A stretch of 64,000 nt of DNA from a virus. Its lineage: Duplodnaviria; Caudoviricetes. The position numbers and the translations under genes are program-made. The notes beneath the pieces are model-generated. The model saw only the letters and a program-made list of their open reading frames with translations. It did not search any database and had not been told where the DNA came from. Numbering within the stretch: position 1 is the stretch's first letter; each line of letters begins with the position of its first letter. Positions 2,043-51,761 of the stretch are shown piece by piece. The stretch lies in the IMG/VR virus record IMGVR_UViG_3300037067_007090, positions 23,831 through 87,830 of that record, one strand, 5' to 3'.

Positions 2043-3595
2043 TTATCCAAGGCGACGCTTTAACAGTTTTGAAAAGGATGGATAGTGAGTCAGTGCATTG
2101 TGCGGTAACGTCAAGTCCATATTATGGATTGCGTTCGTACAATACCGAACCACAAATATGGGATGGAGATCCAAACTGCCAACATGAATGGGGGGAAGTT
2201 CATCCACCGGGATATAGATCATCTGATACAAAACCGGGTCCAATGCAACATGAAGGGAATACGCACCGTGAGAATTTGCGAAGTGATATTTGTTCAAAGT
2301 GTGGAGCGTGGAAAGGTGAACTGGGACAAGAGCCTACACCTGAATTGTTTGTTAAACACCTAACAACTATCTTTCATGAATTAAAAAGGATTTTAAGAAG
2401 CGACGGTGTTTTCTGGATGAATATTGGGGATAGTTATTGTGCTTCTAAATGCGGATCGTTCAACGGTGGATCAGATATTCTTAAAGGAAGAAATCTTGAA
2501 GGTCACTCTAAATCCGGGAATGTAGATAAGTCAAAACTTATGGGAATGAAACCCAAAGACCTTATTGGTATCCCGTGGGCTTTAGCATTTTCTATGCGCT
2601 CCGATGGTGCCTCATCACCACAGACAATGTATACAGTAGAAAAAATCAAAACTTCGTTGCTTCGAGATTATGATACTTGGAATGACGTTCCAAAACATAC
2701 TAAAAGAACAATTGAAGATTTGGATGAAGAGTGGTTAAAAGCAAGTAAGGGGGGTTGGTATCTCCGTTCTGATATTCCTTGGGTAAAAAGAAATTCACTT
2801 CCATCATCTGTAACAGATCGCCCCGGCTCTTCCATTGAACACATATTCTTATTCTCAAAATCACAGAAATATTACTATGACTACATAGCAACAATGCAAC
2901 TTTCATCAGAATCTTACAACAAAGATAAAAGACCGCGCGGTGTTATTCGTCAATGCGTAAACACAAACTCCAAGTATCCAGATGGGGGGCAATTTAAAAA
3001 GCAAGATAACACAGGGAATGAAACTTACACAGGATTTAACGCTCGCTATGAACCTAATGGTTATGGCCTTCGTTACATGCGGGATTCCGATTTCTTCTTC
3101 AAGACATGGCAAGGACTTCTTCACAATGAAGATGGTGAACCAATGGCTCTTGTGGTAAATCCGAAACCGTATAAAGGTTCACATTTTGCCGCATATCCGA
3201 TAAGGCTTGTAGAACCCCTAATTCTCGCGGGAACATCAGAAAAAGGCGTTTGCCCACATTGTGGAGCGCCGTGGGTTAGAGTTGCGAAAAAAGAATCATA
3301 TATAACTCGCCCCACCATTGGTTCTGATGATCAGAAGCAAAAACTCAATCCCGGTAATGCGCAGGGATTAGAACGCACTGGTGGTCATGTTGCTCAAATT
3401 ACTGAAACCATAGATTGGCAACCATCTTGTAATTGCACAAATAACATACCAGTTCCCGCCACAATTCTCGATCCCTTCTCCGGCTCATCAGCAACCGGTG
3501 TCGCTTGTAAACTCCATAATCGTGATTATATTGGTATAGAACTCAATCCTGAATATTGTGAACTTGGAAGAAAACGTATTCGTGAAGGCAAATAA
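2039..3595 (+). CDS. DNA N4-cytosine/N6-adenine methyltransferase (beta class) with Cys-rich insertions
   Basis: GDALTVLK, motif IV variant VTSSPYY, GSHFAAYP, motif I variant DPFSGSSAT, YIGIELNPEY; CxxC inserts. Confidence 0.9.
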   Translation: MIIQGDALTVLKRMDSESVHCAVTSSPYYGLRSYNTEPQIWDGDPNCQHEWGEVHPPGYRSSDTKPGPMQHEGNTHRENLRSDICSKCGAWKGELGQEPTPELFVKHLTTIFHELKRILRSDGVFWMNIGDSYCASKCGSFNGGSDILKGRNLEGHSKSGNVDKSKLMGMKPKDLIGIPWALAFSMRSDGASSPQTMYTVEKIKTSLLRDYDTWNDVPKHTKRTIEDLDEEWLKASKGGWYLRSDIPWVKRNSLPSSVTDRPGSSIEHIFLFSKSQKYYYDYIATMQLSSESYNKDKRPRGVIRQCVNTNSKYPDGGQFKKQDNTGNETYTGFNARYEPNGYGLRYMRDSDFFFKTWQGLLHNEDGEPMALVVNPKPYKGSHFAAYPIRLVEPLILAGTSEKGVCPHCGAPWVRVAKKESYITRPTIGSDDQKQKLNPGNAQGLERTGGHVAQITETIDWQPSCNCTNNIPVPATILDPFSGSSATGVACKLHNRDYIGIELNPEYCELGRKRIREGK

Positions 3596-3640
3596 CCCAC
3601 CACAACCTTTTTATATTAACGCGTCCTATCTTATTACAAT

Positions 3641-4429
3641 ATGCCTCCTCTCGTTTCTGTTATCATTCCAACTCACAACCGCAACCTATCTTTAAAACGA
3701 GCAATCCAAAGTGTCCTAGATCAGACTTTTACAGATTATGAAATTATTGTTGTAGATGACACATGGGCAACCAACGAAATTTCCGATAATTATCCAAATG
3801 TCCATTTTCTTCATATACCTACAACATCATATCCAGCCATATCCAGAAACATGGGCATTAAAGTTTCAAATGGAAAATACATTGCCTTTTTAGATGATGA
3901 TGATGTTTGGTATCCAGAAAAATTAGCATCGCAGATATCAAGATTATTAATAGACCCAAAATTAGGATTGGTTTGCAGTAACGGGAACATAGGAAAAGAT
4001 TTATATATTAAAAGAAATATTACAAATGAACCCGACATGCTTCCACAGGAAATAATAGGGGATTTCGTTGTAACATCGTCATGTGTAATTCGCAGAAGTT
4101 TATTGGAAAAAACAGGTCTATACAACCTGCTCCCACTTTGTGAAGACTATGATTTCTCAATAAGATTTGTAGCAACAACACAAATTTATTACGACCCGAC
4201 ACCTTTGTTTGAATATACTATTTCAGAAAATAGTATACAAAAACGAAGTAACTATTCCTTTGTTGCTTATCACCAAAACGTTATAAAAGTAATGGAAAAT
4301 TTACGAGAATTTTTAAAAAGGAACAATCTGGAAAAACCAGAAACATCGTTTTTAATTCATTATAGAATTCTCGATGAAAAAATAATGGTAATGTGGAATA
4401 TAGTTAAAGATTTTATTAGAGGATATTAA
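3641..4429 (+). CDS. glycosyltransferase family 2
   Basis: VSVIIPTHNR, IIVVDD, AFLDDDD (DxD), EDYDF. Confidence 0.9.
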   Translation: MPPLVSVIIPTHNRNLSLKRAIQSVLDQTFTDYEIIVVDDTWATNEISDNYPNVHFLHIPTTSYPAISRNMGIKVSNGKYIAFLDDDDVWYPEKLASQISRLLIDPKLGLVCSNGNIGKDLYIKRNITNEPDMLPQEIIGDFVVTSSCVIRRSLLEKTGLYNLLPLCEDYDFSIRFVATTQIYYDPTPLFEYTISENSIQKRSNYSFVAYHQNVIKVMENLREFLKRNNLEKPETSFLIHYRILDEKIMVMWNIVKDFIRGY

Positions 4430-5422: not shown

Positions 5423-6591
5423 CACGTATTCTTATACTCGGAGACTACCCACTACCCAATGAAACAATAACCGGCGGAATAATGCGGTCAGTTTATTTAA
5501 CTGCCAATGCATTATCAAAATTGTGCCCAGAATATGACTTTCACGTATTGACAATCACGGATGGAATTGATAAATCTTTTGTGTCAATCAACAAAAATCT
5601 TGCAATCCATTATATCCATTTTCCTTTAAGAAACAAACCAATCTTGGTTCCAAAATTCCTTTCCAAGCAATTGATATTGCATGAAATAAATAAAATAAAA
5701 CCAGATTTAATCCACGCCAATGGTTCAAGCTGGGAATATGGATACCCAGCAATTGCATATAAAAAATGTCCTGTTCTTATAACTGTTCACGGAGTGTCAC
5801 ACAATGAATCAAAATATTGGTCTGGTCTAAAAGGCGCGTGGCATCGTATAAGTTGTTGTAAAATGGAATCACACATCTTTGAAAAAATGGAAAACGTTGT
5901 TGCCGTTTCTTATTATGTAGAAAGAGAAATGAGAAAATGCATATCGAAAACACAATATGGAAACTATGCGATACATGTAGATGTCATTTCCAACCCGGTT
6001 GATCCATGTTTTATGGATGTTACAACAAAATACACAATACCAAATCTATTATTATATGTTGGGGGGATTGAAAAACGAAAAGGATTAGACGTTCTTATCC
6101 GATCACTTTATATAGTTAAAAAACAAATGCCTTATATAAAATTGAATGTCGTTGGTTCGATACGAAGTCCTATATATTGCGCAGATATAATGAAACTCAT
6201 TTCCGATTTGGATTTAATTGACAATGTGAATTTTGTTGGAAAAGTAAGCGATACATTATTAATGAAAGAATATTCTAATGCATCAATATATATTTCACCT
6301 TCATATGAAGAATCAGAGGGTATAACCATTCTTGAAGCGATGGCTACAGGAACACCAGTAATAGCAACCCGGTCGGGCGGTTCGGAAAGTATAATAAAAG
6401 ATGGTGTTGATGGATTGTTGGTAAAAAACGGAAACCACGAAGAACTAGCATTTAAGATTTTAATTTGTGGTGATGCATTAAAAGAGCAACTTGGAAAAGG
6501 AGGGAGGGAAACAGCATTGAAATATTTACCGGAGAATATTGCGAAACAGTATATGGAAGTTTACAGGAGGTTGTTGAAATGCCAAAACTAA
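5419..6591 (+). CDS. glycosyltransferase family 4 (GT-B)
   Basis: PDLIHAN, YVGGIEKRKG, ESEGITILEAMATGTPVIAT. Confidence 0.9.
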   Translation: MTRILILGDYPLPNETITGGIMRSVYLTANALSKLCPEYDFHVLTITDGIDKSFVSINKNLAIHYIHFPLRNKPILVPKFLSKQLILHEINKIKPDLIHANGSSWEYGYPAIAYKKCPVLITVHGVSHNESKYWSGLKGAWHRISCCKMESHIFEKMENVVAVSYYVEREMRKCISKTQYGNYAIHVDVISNPVDPCFMDVTTKYTIPNLLLYVGGIEKRKGLDVLIRSLYIVKKQMPYIKLNVVGSIRSPIYCADIMKLISDLDLIDNVNFVGKVSDTLLMKEYSNASIYISPSYEESEGITILEAMATGTPVIATRSGGSESIIKDGVDGLLVKNGNHEELAFKILICGDALKEQLGKGGRETALKYLPENIAKQYMEVYRRLLKCQN

Positions 6592-23714: not shown

Positions 23715-24218
23715 TTATTTCCTTTCCCACGGCTTCTTTGCCTTAGCCCCGCCAGTACCACCAACAACCGGCGCAGCACCCTTTACCGGCGCAGTCGCAT
23801 CCGTAATGTCCTTAAGTTCTTTTCCATCGGTGCGGGAATAACCTTTAATCACATTTCGATCTTCAAACCCGTTTGAACCGGCGCGAATGCCCACGCTGAT
23901 TACCAGCGGCTTTCCATGAAGTTCCGCGCTGTCCTTCGGATGTAAAACACCAGTTGCACGACAAACAGCGGAAAGCGCGCGCTGTGCTATTTCAACAGTC
24001 TGTGTATTCGTGTTAACAAGATTGAGTGTGTCGAAAATTTTCCGTCCCTTGAAGTCTCCTTCTGCTACCTCATAGGTCAGCAACAGATACTTTCCGTCGC
24101 CTTTCTTGGTATCTTTCATTTCGCTATCAACAATAATTGCCAAATAATCGTCTACGGGGATTGGGGTGAATTTTCCCATCGGATCTACGACGTTGCTATC
24201 AAAGTTTAATTCAGTCAT
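23715..24218 (-). CDS. DUF669-family ssDNA-binding protein
   Basis: FTPIPVDDY...GKYLLLTYEV..G.FKGRKIFD.LNL...IAQRAL...C.ATG; KKPWE tail. Confidence 0.8.
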   Translation of the reverse strand: MTELNFDSNVVDPMGKFTPIPVDDYLAIIVDSEMKDTKKGDGKYLLLTYEVAEGDFKGRKIFDTLNLVNTNTQTVEIAQRALSAVCRATGVLHPKDSAELHGKPLVISVGIRAGSNGFEDRNVIKGYSRTDGKELKDITDATAPVKGAAPVVGGTGGAKAKKPWERK

Positions 24219-35597: not shown

Positions 35598-35870
35598 GTG
35601 ATAATAATGCTAGACAAATATAAACGCTACCACATCGGACGTATAATCCGCGCGACCAATAATCTATTTAAAGAGCCAGATTCCATCTGCCATAAGTGTC
35701 ACAACGTGGAAGGCGATTTAAATTGTTTCTTTTGTTTTTGTCCGCTATACGAAGAATATGAGTGTGGTGGCGATTATGTTATTCTGAATAACGGGTTGAA
35801 GGATTGTTCGGGTTGTTTGAGACCACACATGAAGGAGTTTATTGAGGAGCAACTTTTAAAAATAATGTAA
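35598..35870 (+). CDS. cysteine-rich small domain (zf-like) protein
   Basis: NCFFCFCPLY...CGG...NGLKDCSGCLRPH. Confidence 0.8.
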   Translation: MIIMLDKYKRYHIGRIIRATNNLFKEPDSICHKCHNVEGDLNCFFCFCPLYEEYECGGDYVILNNGLKDCSGCLRPHMKEFIEEQLLKIM

Positions 35871-35917
35871 TGTTGGAAAAGTATATATACTTTAAAAACA
35901 ATAATGTATGTGTTGGA

Positions 35918-35990
35918 GTTCGCATAGCACAATTGGTAGTGCGTCGGGATTGCAATCCGAAGGTTGGGGGTTCAACTCCCCCTGCGAACT
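35918..35990 (+). tRNA. tRNA with anticodon TGC (Ala codons) but non-Ala acceptor identity
   Basis: acceptor GTTCGCA/TGCGAAC, D-stem GCAC/GTGC, anticodon stem TCGGG/TCCGA with loop ATTGCAA, T-arm GGGGG-TTCAACT-CCCCC; TATA ~25 nt upstream. Confidence 0.8.
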
Positions 35991-36047
35991 CCTTCATCTT
36001 GTGTTCCGCATACACATGAAACCTGCGGTGGAGTTCGCAATAAAATT

Positions 36048-36081
36048 GGGCATCTCGCGGTTCATATCCGTGTGATGCTCT
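36048..36081 (+). ncRNA. tRNA minihelix-like element (acceptor stem stacked on T-arm)
   Basis: GGGCATC-T-CGCGG-TTCATAT-CCGTG-T-GATGCTC-T. Confidence 0.5.
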
Positions 36082-36171
36082 TATCAAGTGCACGAAAATA
36101 GATAAAATCGTGCATTATAATGTTTGGAGTGCACGAAACTTTTAAATACTATAAAATAGAATTAACAGAGA

Positions 36172-42722: not shown

Positions 42723-42796
42723 GATGTTTCACCTTTATTATTTTATTATAATGACATTATCATATTTAAACCTTTCTATTCATTTAGTATACTTTG

Positions 42797-42824
42797 AATT
42801 AGTCTAATTTGGATTAGACTAATT
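42797..42824. promoter_or_regulatory. perfect 12-bp inverted repeat between divergent promoters
   Basis: AATTAGTCTAAT-TTGG-ATTAGACTAATT. Confidence 0.5.
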
Positions 42825-42876
42825 AAAAATACGGTGAAGAATAAGTTTTAAATACTTATAAGTCATACAATAGTAT

Positions 42877-43228
42877 AGCCAAGAGTTACAAAATCAATAC
42901 GAATGTGAGGTCAGCGAATTTTCGAAACCTCCAACATTCTTATGGTTAGAACTTTTGAGCTAATGTACAGAAGTCCGACTAATCATCTCTCATGCTTTGC
43001 TTTCCGCACAGGAATAAGTTTGGCGGATACTTACCAACAACCGCCATAAAACAATCGTCTAATATTGACATTTGTGAAAATAGTTTGTGTAAAAGACCGG
43101 CGCAATAAAATAATGCGCCGGTCAAAATGCAACCAAGATAACCCCTCGTGGCAGATCGTTGCGGGTTCAACACCCGCTGGTTGCTTTTGGTTAAAACAAT
43201 GGAGTGTACAAAGACTCTCGTTTTGGCC
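42877..43228 (+). ncRNA. unidentified structured RNA (~350 nt) containing a truncated tRNA-like element
   Basis: TATA TTTTAAATA ~42846-42854; stacked hairpins (GAATGT/ACATTC, ATGGTTAG/CTAATCAT, TGGCGG/CCGCCA, GACCGGCGCA/TGCGCCGGTC); 5'-3' end pairing; acceptor GCAACCA/TGGTTGC with T-arm GCGGG-TTCAACA-CCCGC at 43129-43185. Confidence 0.6.
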
Positions 43229-43242
43229 AGAATATATTTTTC

Positions 43243-43319
43243 GGGCCTGTAGCTCAGTCCGGTTAGAGCGCCCGGCTCATAACCGGGAGATTTCATCGGT
43301 TCAAATCCGATCTGGCCCA
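43243..43319 (+). tRNA. tRNA anticodon CAT, resembling archaeal tRNA-Ile2
   Basis: GGGCCTG acceptor (one U-U mismatch), CCCGG-CTCATAA-CCGGG, ATCGG-TTCAAAT-CCGAT, A73. Confidence 0.85.
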
Positions 43320-43365
43320 CTAATCGAAACATATATAACTCATCACAACCAATACGTATATAGAT

Positions 43366-51394: not shown

Positions 51395-51615
51395 TCCAGA
51401 AACCACGGAAGTGATATCACTGTGGAAGTATGGTCGTAGATTACGAACGTCAAGCGTAATTGAGGTAGAAGCAACCAAAATAACAATGCTACGTGAGTTA
51501 ATGTGCTATCACGTTAATCACCGCGCACCCCCCCCGTGCGGGATTACACCAATCGGGGCAGTAACAAGGTGGTTGAGGCGACCGGAGCCAAGAACCAAAA
51601 TCCGGATTAATTATT

Positions 51616-51735
51616 ACCAGAGAAACACAAAAGATGTGTTGTCAACTCGCACCGCGAGAACGGGATGCCAAGTTCCACAAGAGACCCAATCTCGCGCGAG
51701 AAATTGAATAATGAGTTCAAATCTCATCTCTGGTT
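51616..51735 (+). ncRNA. tRNA-like element with expanded interior (120 nt)
   Basis: acceptor ACCAGAG/CTCTGGT, T-arm ATGAG-TTCAAAT-CTCAT; interior of 3-4 short hairpins, no canonical anticodon loop. Confidence 0.6.
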
Positions 51736-51761
51736 TGCGCCTGCGTGTACACAAAGGCGTA

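Follow-up and report, generated by a model that had tools for sequence, protein, structure and literature searches.

The anticodon arm is retained by every decoding tRNA, and the stack of acceptor and T arm, together with the elbow, is recognised by RNase P, RNase Z and the CCA-adding enzyme. Fused RNAs are split by tRNA-processing enzymes in several systems, such as the tRNA-microRNA-encoded RNAs (TMERs) of murid gammaherpesvirus 68 and the plant and archaeal dicistronic tRNA-small-RNA genes. In vertebrates, a tRNA-like element serves in 3'-end formation of long non-coding RNAs (lncRNAs), as in MALAT1/mascRNA and MEN-beta/menRNA: RNase P cuts at the 5' end of the tRNA-like unit and thereby forms the mature 3' end of the RNA that precedes it, which has a protective structure just 5' of the cut, and in mascRNA the pairing of an A-rich leader with a U-rich trailer can extend the acceptor stem (PMC8457004). 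Here, we describe a viral RNA locus with a similar layout. It lies in a 64,000-nt stretch of DNA (the window; positions 23,831 to 87,830 of IMGVR_UViG_3300037067_007090, an 87.8-kb contig called C3 below), and its predicted RNA carries a tRNA-like unit that has no anticodon arm. The first-pass annotation of the window had proposed a new viral non-coding RNA (ncRNA) class at this place; the designation is fair for a sequence family, but a tRNA-like unit on a longer ncRNA has precedents.

The likeness to MALAT1/mascRNA lies in the arrangement. As there, a non-decoding tRNA shape of ~57 nt stands directly 3' of a longer structured ncRNA, and an A-rich leader and a U-rich trailer that can lengthen the acceptor stem are present in the window and in one of two related loci (L005). 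The two systems differ in domain of life, polymerase and sequence family. mascRNA keeps a reduced anticodon stem, whereas the viral unit has none but keeps the D arm, and the protective element of MALAT1 is a triple helix, whereas here a plain hairpin would take the protective role. Genuine tRNAs stand in the same unit here, unlike in MALAT1/mascRNA, and the cleavages here are predictions from the sequence. The TMERs and the dicistronic genes also join a tRNA or tRNA-like element to another small RNA, but in the TMERs the tRNA-like unit is 5' of its cargo and carries the promoter, and the cargo is a microRNA hairpin or a C/D box RNA.

A tRNA mimic without an anticodon arm

Besides the window copy on C3, the RNA locus recurs in two other viruses, on G041 (112.5 kb; locus L004, which has a twin, L008, in a metagenome record) and on G042 (46.6 kb; locus L005), both reached via a DPM-synthase/GtrA-like gene. 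G041 and G042 align collinearly with C3 for tens of kb, with a nucleotide identity of 70-85%, and in 3/3 lineages the locus has the same position and orientation, between the divergent DPM-synthase-like gene and a tRNA cluster. The 5' part of the RNA is 83% (L005) and 80% (L004) identical to the window copy, compared with 74% and 71% nucleotide identity for the DPM-synthase-like gene. Since a full-locus MAFFT alignment misaligns the tRNA-like unit because of an insertion, a block-wise alignment was used. Exact and degenerate DNA patterns gave nothing beyond L008 in IMG/VR and metagenomes, and a pattern search of GTDB genomes gave two chance matches, both failing both covariance models (CMs) used below. 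No further members were found by protein-anchored searches (two flanking genes, an alignment of the upstream gene, and PrimPol), by CM scans of 7 further viral records, or among 40 'relatives' of the bin that holds C3.

The tRNA-like unit, hereafter the mini-tRNA or mimic, is as follows:

43129..43185, + strand: mini-tRNA, 57 nt, with a 7-bp acceptor, a D-arm-like hairpin, a T arm and the discriminator U43185

The acceptor stem pairs GCAACCA (43129-35) with TGGTTGC (43178-84) in the window and has 6 bp in L005 and L004. The T arm (43161-77, GCGGG-UUCAACA-CCCGC) has a 5-bp stem and a 7-nt loop of the UUCRANN type. These two elements had previously been described as joined by 25 nt, too short for both a D arm and an anticodon arm. 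The length of 25 nt is confirmed, but the join is not featureless, as the central 25 nt contain a conserved D-arm-like hairpin with a 3-bp stem (43137-39/43155-57). The loop bases AACC...GGCAG of this hairpin are invariant and look like the D-loop signature A14-R15-Y16-Y17...G18-G19-Y20-A21. The gap between acceptor and T arm thus holds a single D-arm-like hairpin, and with no anticodon arm the mini-tRNA cannot decode and cannot be a translational adaptor. No CCA is encoded, and the same is true of the virus's genuine tRNA genes.

The alignment of the three copies shows that 17/17 pairs of the mini-tRNA are standard in 3/3 sequences, which are only 56-74% identical to each other. Six pairs are compensatory; three of them are among the five pairs of the T stem, and the other three belong to the stem of the central hairpin. 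The minimum-free-energy fold of each copy is the proposed shape, and the three copies score 79-84 bits with a CM of the unit (R1). As a control, none of 500 shuffles equalled this pairing, and slid partners gave 25-49% paired positions. ARAGORN made no tRNA call for the mini-tRNA, and the Rfam tRNA model (RF00005, 29 bits) had no match to it on the + strand. Compared with canonical tRNA (RF00005), the mini-tRNA has the same acceptor, UUCRANN T arm, D-loop signature bases and discriminator. Its length is similar to that of the armless mitochondrial tRNAs that lack the D arm or the T arm, but unlike them it is without the anticodon arm. Taken together, these results suggest that the mini-tRNA is a tRNA lacking only the anticodon arm, in which the acceptor/T-arm stack and the D/T elbow would be kept.

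The putative transcript and its predicted processing

The mini-tRNA lies in an intergenic stretch (42723-43365) with one recognised gene, tRNA(CAU). The other features of this region are:

42799..42822, no strand assigned: palindrome TTAGTCTAA-N6-TTAGACTAA, 55-78 nt upstream of the predicted RNA start
42846..42854, + strand: TATA-box-like element TTTTAAATA, with an A-rich 5' flank like a B recognition element
42877..42962, + strand: 5' domain (P1 domain), an irregular extended hairpin of 86 nt, z = -5.2
42963..43020, + strand: variable linker (~55 nt) that holds GUCCGA (42973-42978) and most of a 35-codon open reading frame (ORF)
43021..43046, + strand: hairpin HP2, 6-bp stem UGGCGG/CCGCCA and 14-nt loop, z = -2.4
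43051..43128, + strand: insertion of 78 nt, in the window copy only, absent from L005 and L004
43186..43231, + strand: 3' hairpin UUUGGUUAAAAC.../...GUUUUGGCCAGA, which follows the mini-tRNA and precedes the tRNA, z = -4.5
43232..43241, + strand: AUAUAUUUUU tract, the end of which is 1-2 nt from the tRNA that follows
43243..43320, + strand: genuine tRNA(CAU), called by ARAGORN and scoring 65 bits with Rfam

The TATA box, a start at ~42877, the hairpins including a perfect 10-bp one, the 57-nt truncated tRNA and the tRNA(CAT) downstream were all part of the first-pass annotation, and each was found where it had been placed; for the tRNA, ARAGORN and Rfam agree. The promoter part AAGTTTTAAATA is invariant in the alignment of 3/3 viruses, and the sequence AGCC starts at 42877, ~26 nt 3' of the centre of the TATA box; the predicted RNA start is at ~42877. 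The palindrome upstream has no other exact copy in the window. Its motif is kept in the alignment, inverted in L005 and as direct repeats GTAGACTAA / GTAGACTCC in L004, and it may bind a regulator that acts on the RNA promoter or on the divergent gene.

A 352-nt stretch of the locus folds better than 100/100 shuffles (z = -4.8). The minus strand folds well too (z = -3.6), and G-U pairs in the P1 domain favour the + strand. The total length of the RNA would be 366 nt in the window, 288 nt in L005 and 270 nt in L004. Apart from the adjoining tRNA-Met, Rfam gave no match to the window RNA at gathering thresholds and no meaningful one at E<=10; the L005 and L004 copies were likewise unmatched. Inspection by eye showed no kink-turn and no C/D or H/ACA boxes, no antisense targets of the linker, HP2 loop, insertion or tail were found among the sequences of this analysis, and no arrays were found in the bin that would fit a CRISPR-repeat mimic. 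The earlier description of a viral, promoter-driven, structured and non-coding locus is borne out. The locus has no known family, its copies in two other viruses carry compensatory base changes, and C3 itself is viral with archaeal features. We conclude that the ncRNA locus is real, conserved and structured, that it belongs to an archaeal-type group of large viruses rich in tRNA genes, and that it is a new RNA sequence family resting on three lineages.

Four modules are conserved: the ~86-nt hairpin domain, HP2, the mini-tRNA, and the 3' hairpin with AUAUAUUUUU. The P1 domain is closed by pairing of its 5' end AGCCAAGAGUU with AACUUUUGAGCU, which is possible in 3/3 viruses, and its apical part GGUCAGCG..UUCGAAACC.CCAAC shows no change among the three. 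The consensus fold of this domain has 28 pairs, with 95% paired and two compensatory pairs by count; a third is seen by eye (C3-G to U-A in L004). The domain is 94% identical to L005 and 73% to L004, and its CM (R2) matches only this locus in the three lineages. The linker has 78% identity to L005 and 48% to L004, whereas the HP2 stem is invariant in 3/3, with a loop that is the same in L005 and altered in L004. The RNA had been drawn as a single closed fold of ~350 nt, in which GCCAA/GAGT/TACA at 42878-42890 pairs with TGTA (43205-08), ACTC (43214-17) and TTGGC (43223-27), or alternatively with TTTTGGTT (43185-92). These pairings are possible in the window and L005 and fail in L004, where the 5' end closes the local 86-nt domain instead, a fold that is supported by covariation; the single closed fold is therefore not retained.

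The 78-nt insertion begins with a remnant resembling the mini-tRNA 5' end (CAATCGTC), and a search of the genome and of the related viruses gave no second copy of it. Inside this insertion lies the perfect, GC-rich 10-bp hairpin (GACCGGCGCA at 43095-43104 with TGCGCCGGTC at 43114-43123), which the first-pass annotation had counted among the hairpins of the RNA but which is no part of the conserved RNA; the relatives have 268-288 nt. In 3/3 copies a hairpin ends 4-6 nt before the mini-tRNA, namely HP2 in the relatives and the 10-bp hairpin in the window.

On the 3' side, a stable hairpin of other sequence is found at the matching place in L005 and L004. The AUAUAUUUUU tract is identical in 3/3 viruses though the next tRNA differs, being Met in the window, Gly in L005 and Ile in L004. 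There are 4 copies of AUAUAUUUUU in the window compared with 1.9 expected, and the tract is possibly a leaky oligo-T terminator or a leader signal. The tRNA(CAU) is 97% identical in L005. It has no promoter-like box at -25 to -35, unlike the other tRNA genes in the window, which have TTTAAATA-type boxes ~30-35 nt on their 5' side. Since it lacks its own promoter box, one transcript would extend from ~42877 through the tRNA(s), and the tRNA(CAU) is probably co-transcribed with the upstream RNA. In L004 (minus strand), the 5' strand and loop of HP2, GCGGUCACCUG (5716-5726), is complementary over 11 nt to the tail CAGGUGAUCGC (5621-5631). This pairing could form an alternative long helix that encloses the mini-tRNA, as a leader-trailer clamp, or could be due to chance; at these positions, the window and L005 have only ACCAA/UUGGU.

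Our best reading, which we hold to be about as likely as not, is a model in which one promoter drives an operon of leader RNA, tRNA mimic and tRNA, and cutting by RNase P/Z at the mimic frees the leader. The TATA-type promoter at 42846-54 would start the RNA at ~42877, and the transcript would contain, in order, the 86-nt domain, the linker, HP2, the tRNA mimic, the 3' hairpin and at least one genuine tRNA; the T5 tract would be no more than a leaky stop. The mimic would retain the parts read by tRNA-end-processing enzymes, the acceptor/T-arm stack and the D-loop/T-loop elbow, and on this basis RNase P is predicted to cut at 43128/43129 and RNase Z after U43185. The first product would be a leader RNA of 165-250 nt, the new 3' end of which would be shielded by a terminal hairpin (HP2 in L005 and L004, the inserted 10-bp hairpin in the window). 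The second would be a tRNA-shaped RNA of 54-57 nt that is unable to decode, and the third the downstream tRNA. Transcription, co-transcription of the tRNA and the cleavages are all steps that we infer. Counted in favour of the processing model are the conservation of the locus above that of the flanking gene and at the same site in three lineages, the 17/17 pairs and six compensatory changes of the mini-tRNA together with the covariation of the P1 domain, and the hairpin 4-6 nt before the mimic in 3/3.

Several points weigh against this model. The shuffle and slide controls are indicative and no proof, as they involve three related sequences, and kinship alone can let sequences outscore shuffles when no structure is present; the covariation statistics, with only three distinct sequences, are weak. 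L004 has no A/U extension of leader and trailer but the 11-nt complementarity instead, and the flanking structure is thus not uniform. The T5 tract just 5' of the tRNA could be a genuine terminator, in which case the tRNA would form a unit of its own. Transcription and cleavage are deduced from sequence, and the RNase P and RNase Z of the host are assumed, the bin being bacterial (see below). Finally, the model accounts for the mimic, yet it assigns no role to the 86-nt domain, which is better conserved than any other part.

If true, the processing model would bring to archaeal viruses a principle known from vertebrate lncRNAs and a herpesvirus, the use of a tRNA-like element as an RNA-processing handle, and a tRNA that lacks only the anticodon arm and keeps the elbow would offer RNase P, RNase Z and the CCA-adding enzyme a natural minimal substrate. 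To our knowledge, few structured ncRNAs of archaeal viruses have been described, and this locus has a clear anatomy, structural selection and no Rfam counterpart. Most likely, the working principle is already known elsewhere, and what is new is the sequence family, with an unusual mimic that lacks the anticodon arm. A wider proposal, which we put forward tentatively and regard as doubtful, is that the 86-nt domain and the mimic form an undescribed class of archaeal-virus regulatory RNA, the freed leader RNA and non-decoding tRNA body of which would act on the host tRNA-handling or antiviral machinery, as part of a wider unrecognised repertoire of tRNA-shaped ncRNAs and Ro60/Y-RNA-like systems in large archaeal viruses.

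Other explanations of the locus

The mimic itself could be the effector and the upstream RNA a mere leader. In this case, the non-decoding tRNA body would titrate or divert proteins that bind the elbow or acceptor, with a host tRNA-targeting defence or tRNA-processing/modification enzymes as targets, or it would be charged by an anticodon-independent synthetase for a non-translational use. The strongest structural selection of the locus is indeed in the mimic, and several other tRNA-shaped RNAs with unusable anticodon arms occur in the same virus group. However, this leaves unexplained the 86-nt domain and HP2, the sequence conservation of which is no lower than that of the mimic, no candidate partner protein is encoded next to the mimic, and we know of no acceptor- or elbow-targeting defence system for these hosts; we consider an effector role of this kind unlikely.

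Two further tRNA-shaped RNAs were observed in this virus group. L005:2904-2984 (minus strand) has the same GCAACC acceptor stem and a D arm, with a 4-nt loop at the place of the anticodon loop. At 51615-51740 of the window, an acceptor (ACCAGAG/CUCUGGU) and a T arm surround an insertion of ~90 nt, in an array that spans 51.6-52.2 kb. Such elements suggest that these viruses use tRNA bodies more widely, and the mimic opens a direct route to the role of the many tRNA-shaped, non-decoding RNAs that they carry.

Bacterial and phage Y RNAs have a tRNA-like domain and a Ro60-contact motif, GNCGAA, that resembles the vertebrate GGUCCGA (PMC4201824). The window RNA might therefore be a Y-RNA-like partner (YrlA type) of a viral Ro60, in which GUCCGA binds Ro60 and the tRNA-like module tethers an effector. 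In line with this, the window (42973-78) and L005 both have GUCCGA, at +97, and G042 encodes a Ro60-like protein (TROVE and vWA_Ro60 domains) 8.6 kb from its RNA copy. YrlA (RF02553) also combines a tRNA-like module (T arm, D arm and acceptor-like stem) with a second module, as here. The differences are considerable: the termini of YrlA form the Ro60-binding stem and its acceptor-like stem is a closed one, while the viral RNA has an open acceptor and a contiguous mimic; YrlA has 80-130 nt, compared with 270-366 nt here; and a YrlA RNA would be expected within ~4 kb of a Ro60 gene on the same strand, whereas in G042 the RNA is 8.6 kb away on the opposite strand. The Rfam YrlA model gave 16.2 bits against a threshold of 69, covering only the T arm and its flank. 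The motif GTCCGA is common (291 per 2.5 Mb, or about once per 8.7 kb) and is missing from L004. The C3 slot syntenic to the Ro60 gene of G042 holds a tRNA-Ala, and no TROVE match was found in the 112 kb of G041, the contig end of which lies near the syntenic region; with TROVE absent from both, the RNA would be kept without a viral Ro60. The only TROVE gene of the bin is on C13, a second and different viral contig (IMGVR_UViG_3300037067_012186) that has no nucleotide similarity to G041 or G042, and its product has 39% protein identity to that of G042. Better Y-RNA candidates lie directly 5' of the C13 and G042 TROVE genes, and in a shuffled local alignment the T arm alone is common to the window RNA and the Ro60-adjacent RNA. 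We hence judge a Y-RNA role quite improbable. The word GUYCGAYUAAUC and the AUACUU loops that seemed to be shared with the Ro60-adjacent RNAs were not significant in the shuffled local alignment and were rejected.

The Ro60-like genes are of interest in their own right. They are found at G000:C13:29973-31499 (L023:9973-11499), at L024:12147-13682 (G042) and at L027 ~2939-4368 (G043, a 219-kb virus), all on contigs that look archaeal. The C13 and G042 proteins have TROVE and vWA_Ro60 domains and that of G043 was assigned by 36% identity to them; mutual identity is 36-39%. Ro60 has been described in Asgard-archaeal viruses, where its possible action with a Y RNA was suggested by the authors (bioRxiv 10.1101/2021.07.29.454249). 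Candidate Y RNAs are located directly 5' of the Ro60 genes on the same strand at L020:1043-1290 (C13) and L024:11880-12090 (G042), which is the layout of YrlA-type Y RNAs in bacteria and phages (PMC4201824). Both candidates have a TTTAAATA-type promoter, a leader hairpin of 75-90 nt and a tRNA-like RNA, followed by a T-run. In the leader hairpin, the helix GUUGAAC/GUUCGAU of G042 covaries to GUUGGGC/GCCCGAU in C13, with UUG/CGA kept as in the vertebrate Ro60 site. The tRNA-like part has acceptor, D arm and T arm, with 55-80 extra nt at the position of the anticodon arm, and Rfam gave only weak tRNA or tmRNA-like matches. The loop motif (G)[AU]UACUUC recurs in these candidates and in G043, where structured hairpins but no tRNA-like element were seen upstream of Ro60. 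The slot in the window that is syntenic to the Y-RNA candidate and Ro60 module of G042 (L024 11842-13689) is 35870-36089 (C3:59700-59919), in which tRNA-Ala(UGC) (35918-35992) stands behind the same conserved promoter; a Ro60 system and a tRNA gene seem to have been exchanged here as modules. With Ro60 genes and adjoining tRNA-like RNAs in related viruses, Y-RNA biology becomes testable in the archaeal virosphere.

Decay would offer another account, in which a tRNA pseudogene that lost its anticodon arm, plus a spacer, stands before a tRNA gene as non-functional debris. tRNA genes are gained, lost and swapped at this site (Met, Gly or Ile after the element), and the 78-nt insertion of the window, with its remnant of the mimic 5' end, would fit. 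Yet every stem is preserved through six double substitutions, conservation is above that of the neighbouring coding gene and the promoter box is invariant, which makes debris very unlikely. Even less probable is that the conservation reflects coding constraint on a peptide of 34-35 residues (ATG 42942 to TAA 43047-43049). The reading frame is uninterrupted in the window and L005, with a frame-preserving 3-nt indel and three synonymous differences by eye, but these two are so close that an open frame is weakly informative, and 6/9 codon differences between them alter the residue. Moreover, L004 has ATT in place of the ATG and its frame stops before HP2, the stem of which is nevertheless kept, and the ORF start lies inside the base-paired domain. 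A very divergent RNase P RNA or signal recognition particle (SRP) RNA, initially attractive because neither family was found in the whole bin, was rejected as extremely improbable: archaeal models of both are not expected to match a bacterial bin, so that the argument from a missing gene collapses, RF00373 and RF01857 had no match in the region at E<=10, no P4 partner or helix-8 motifs were seen, in agreement with the earlier failure to find RNase P or SRP motifs, and the sole RNase-P-like word, AAGUCCG, is not conserved in L004.

The virus and its bin

C3 encodes PrimPol with DUF3987, a family-B DNA polymerase, a DNA methylase and a YqaJ-like nuclease, as well as homing endonucleases, TnpB, glycan-synthesis operons and a DUF3821 protein, and it has twelve tRNA genes. 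A tRNA-Met gene of a relative contains a 22-nt intron at position 38. The contig is viral, and it is archaeal in style, based on the TTTAAATA boxes before its tRNA genes, the intron-bearing tRNA-Met of the relative and the DUF3821 protein. In contrast to this, the 1.27-Mb bin that holds C3 contains a transfer-messenger RNA (tmRNA) at C17:3310-3707 with the tag ANKIAKATFSWKVPAFAPVVA, and neither ribosomal protein S8e nor mcrA was found in it. A methanogen host, which had been considered on the basis of the bin, was dropped because no mcrA was found. With a tmRNA and no S8e, the bin is bacterial and C3 a mis-binned virus, and the bin is therefore no guide to the host. The other viral contig of the bin, C13, has 28 tRNA genes of its own, one of them with a CUA anticodon.

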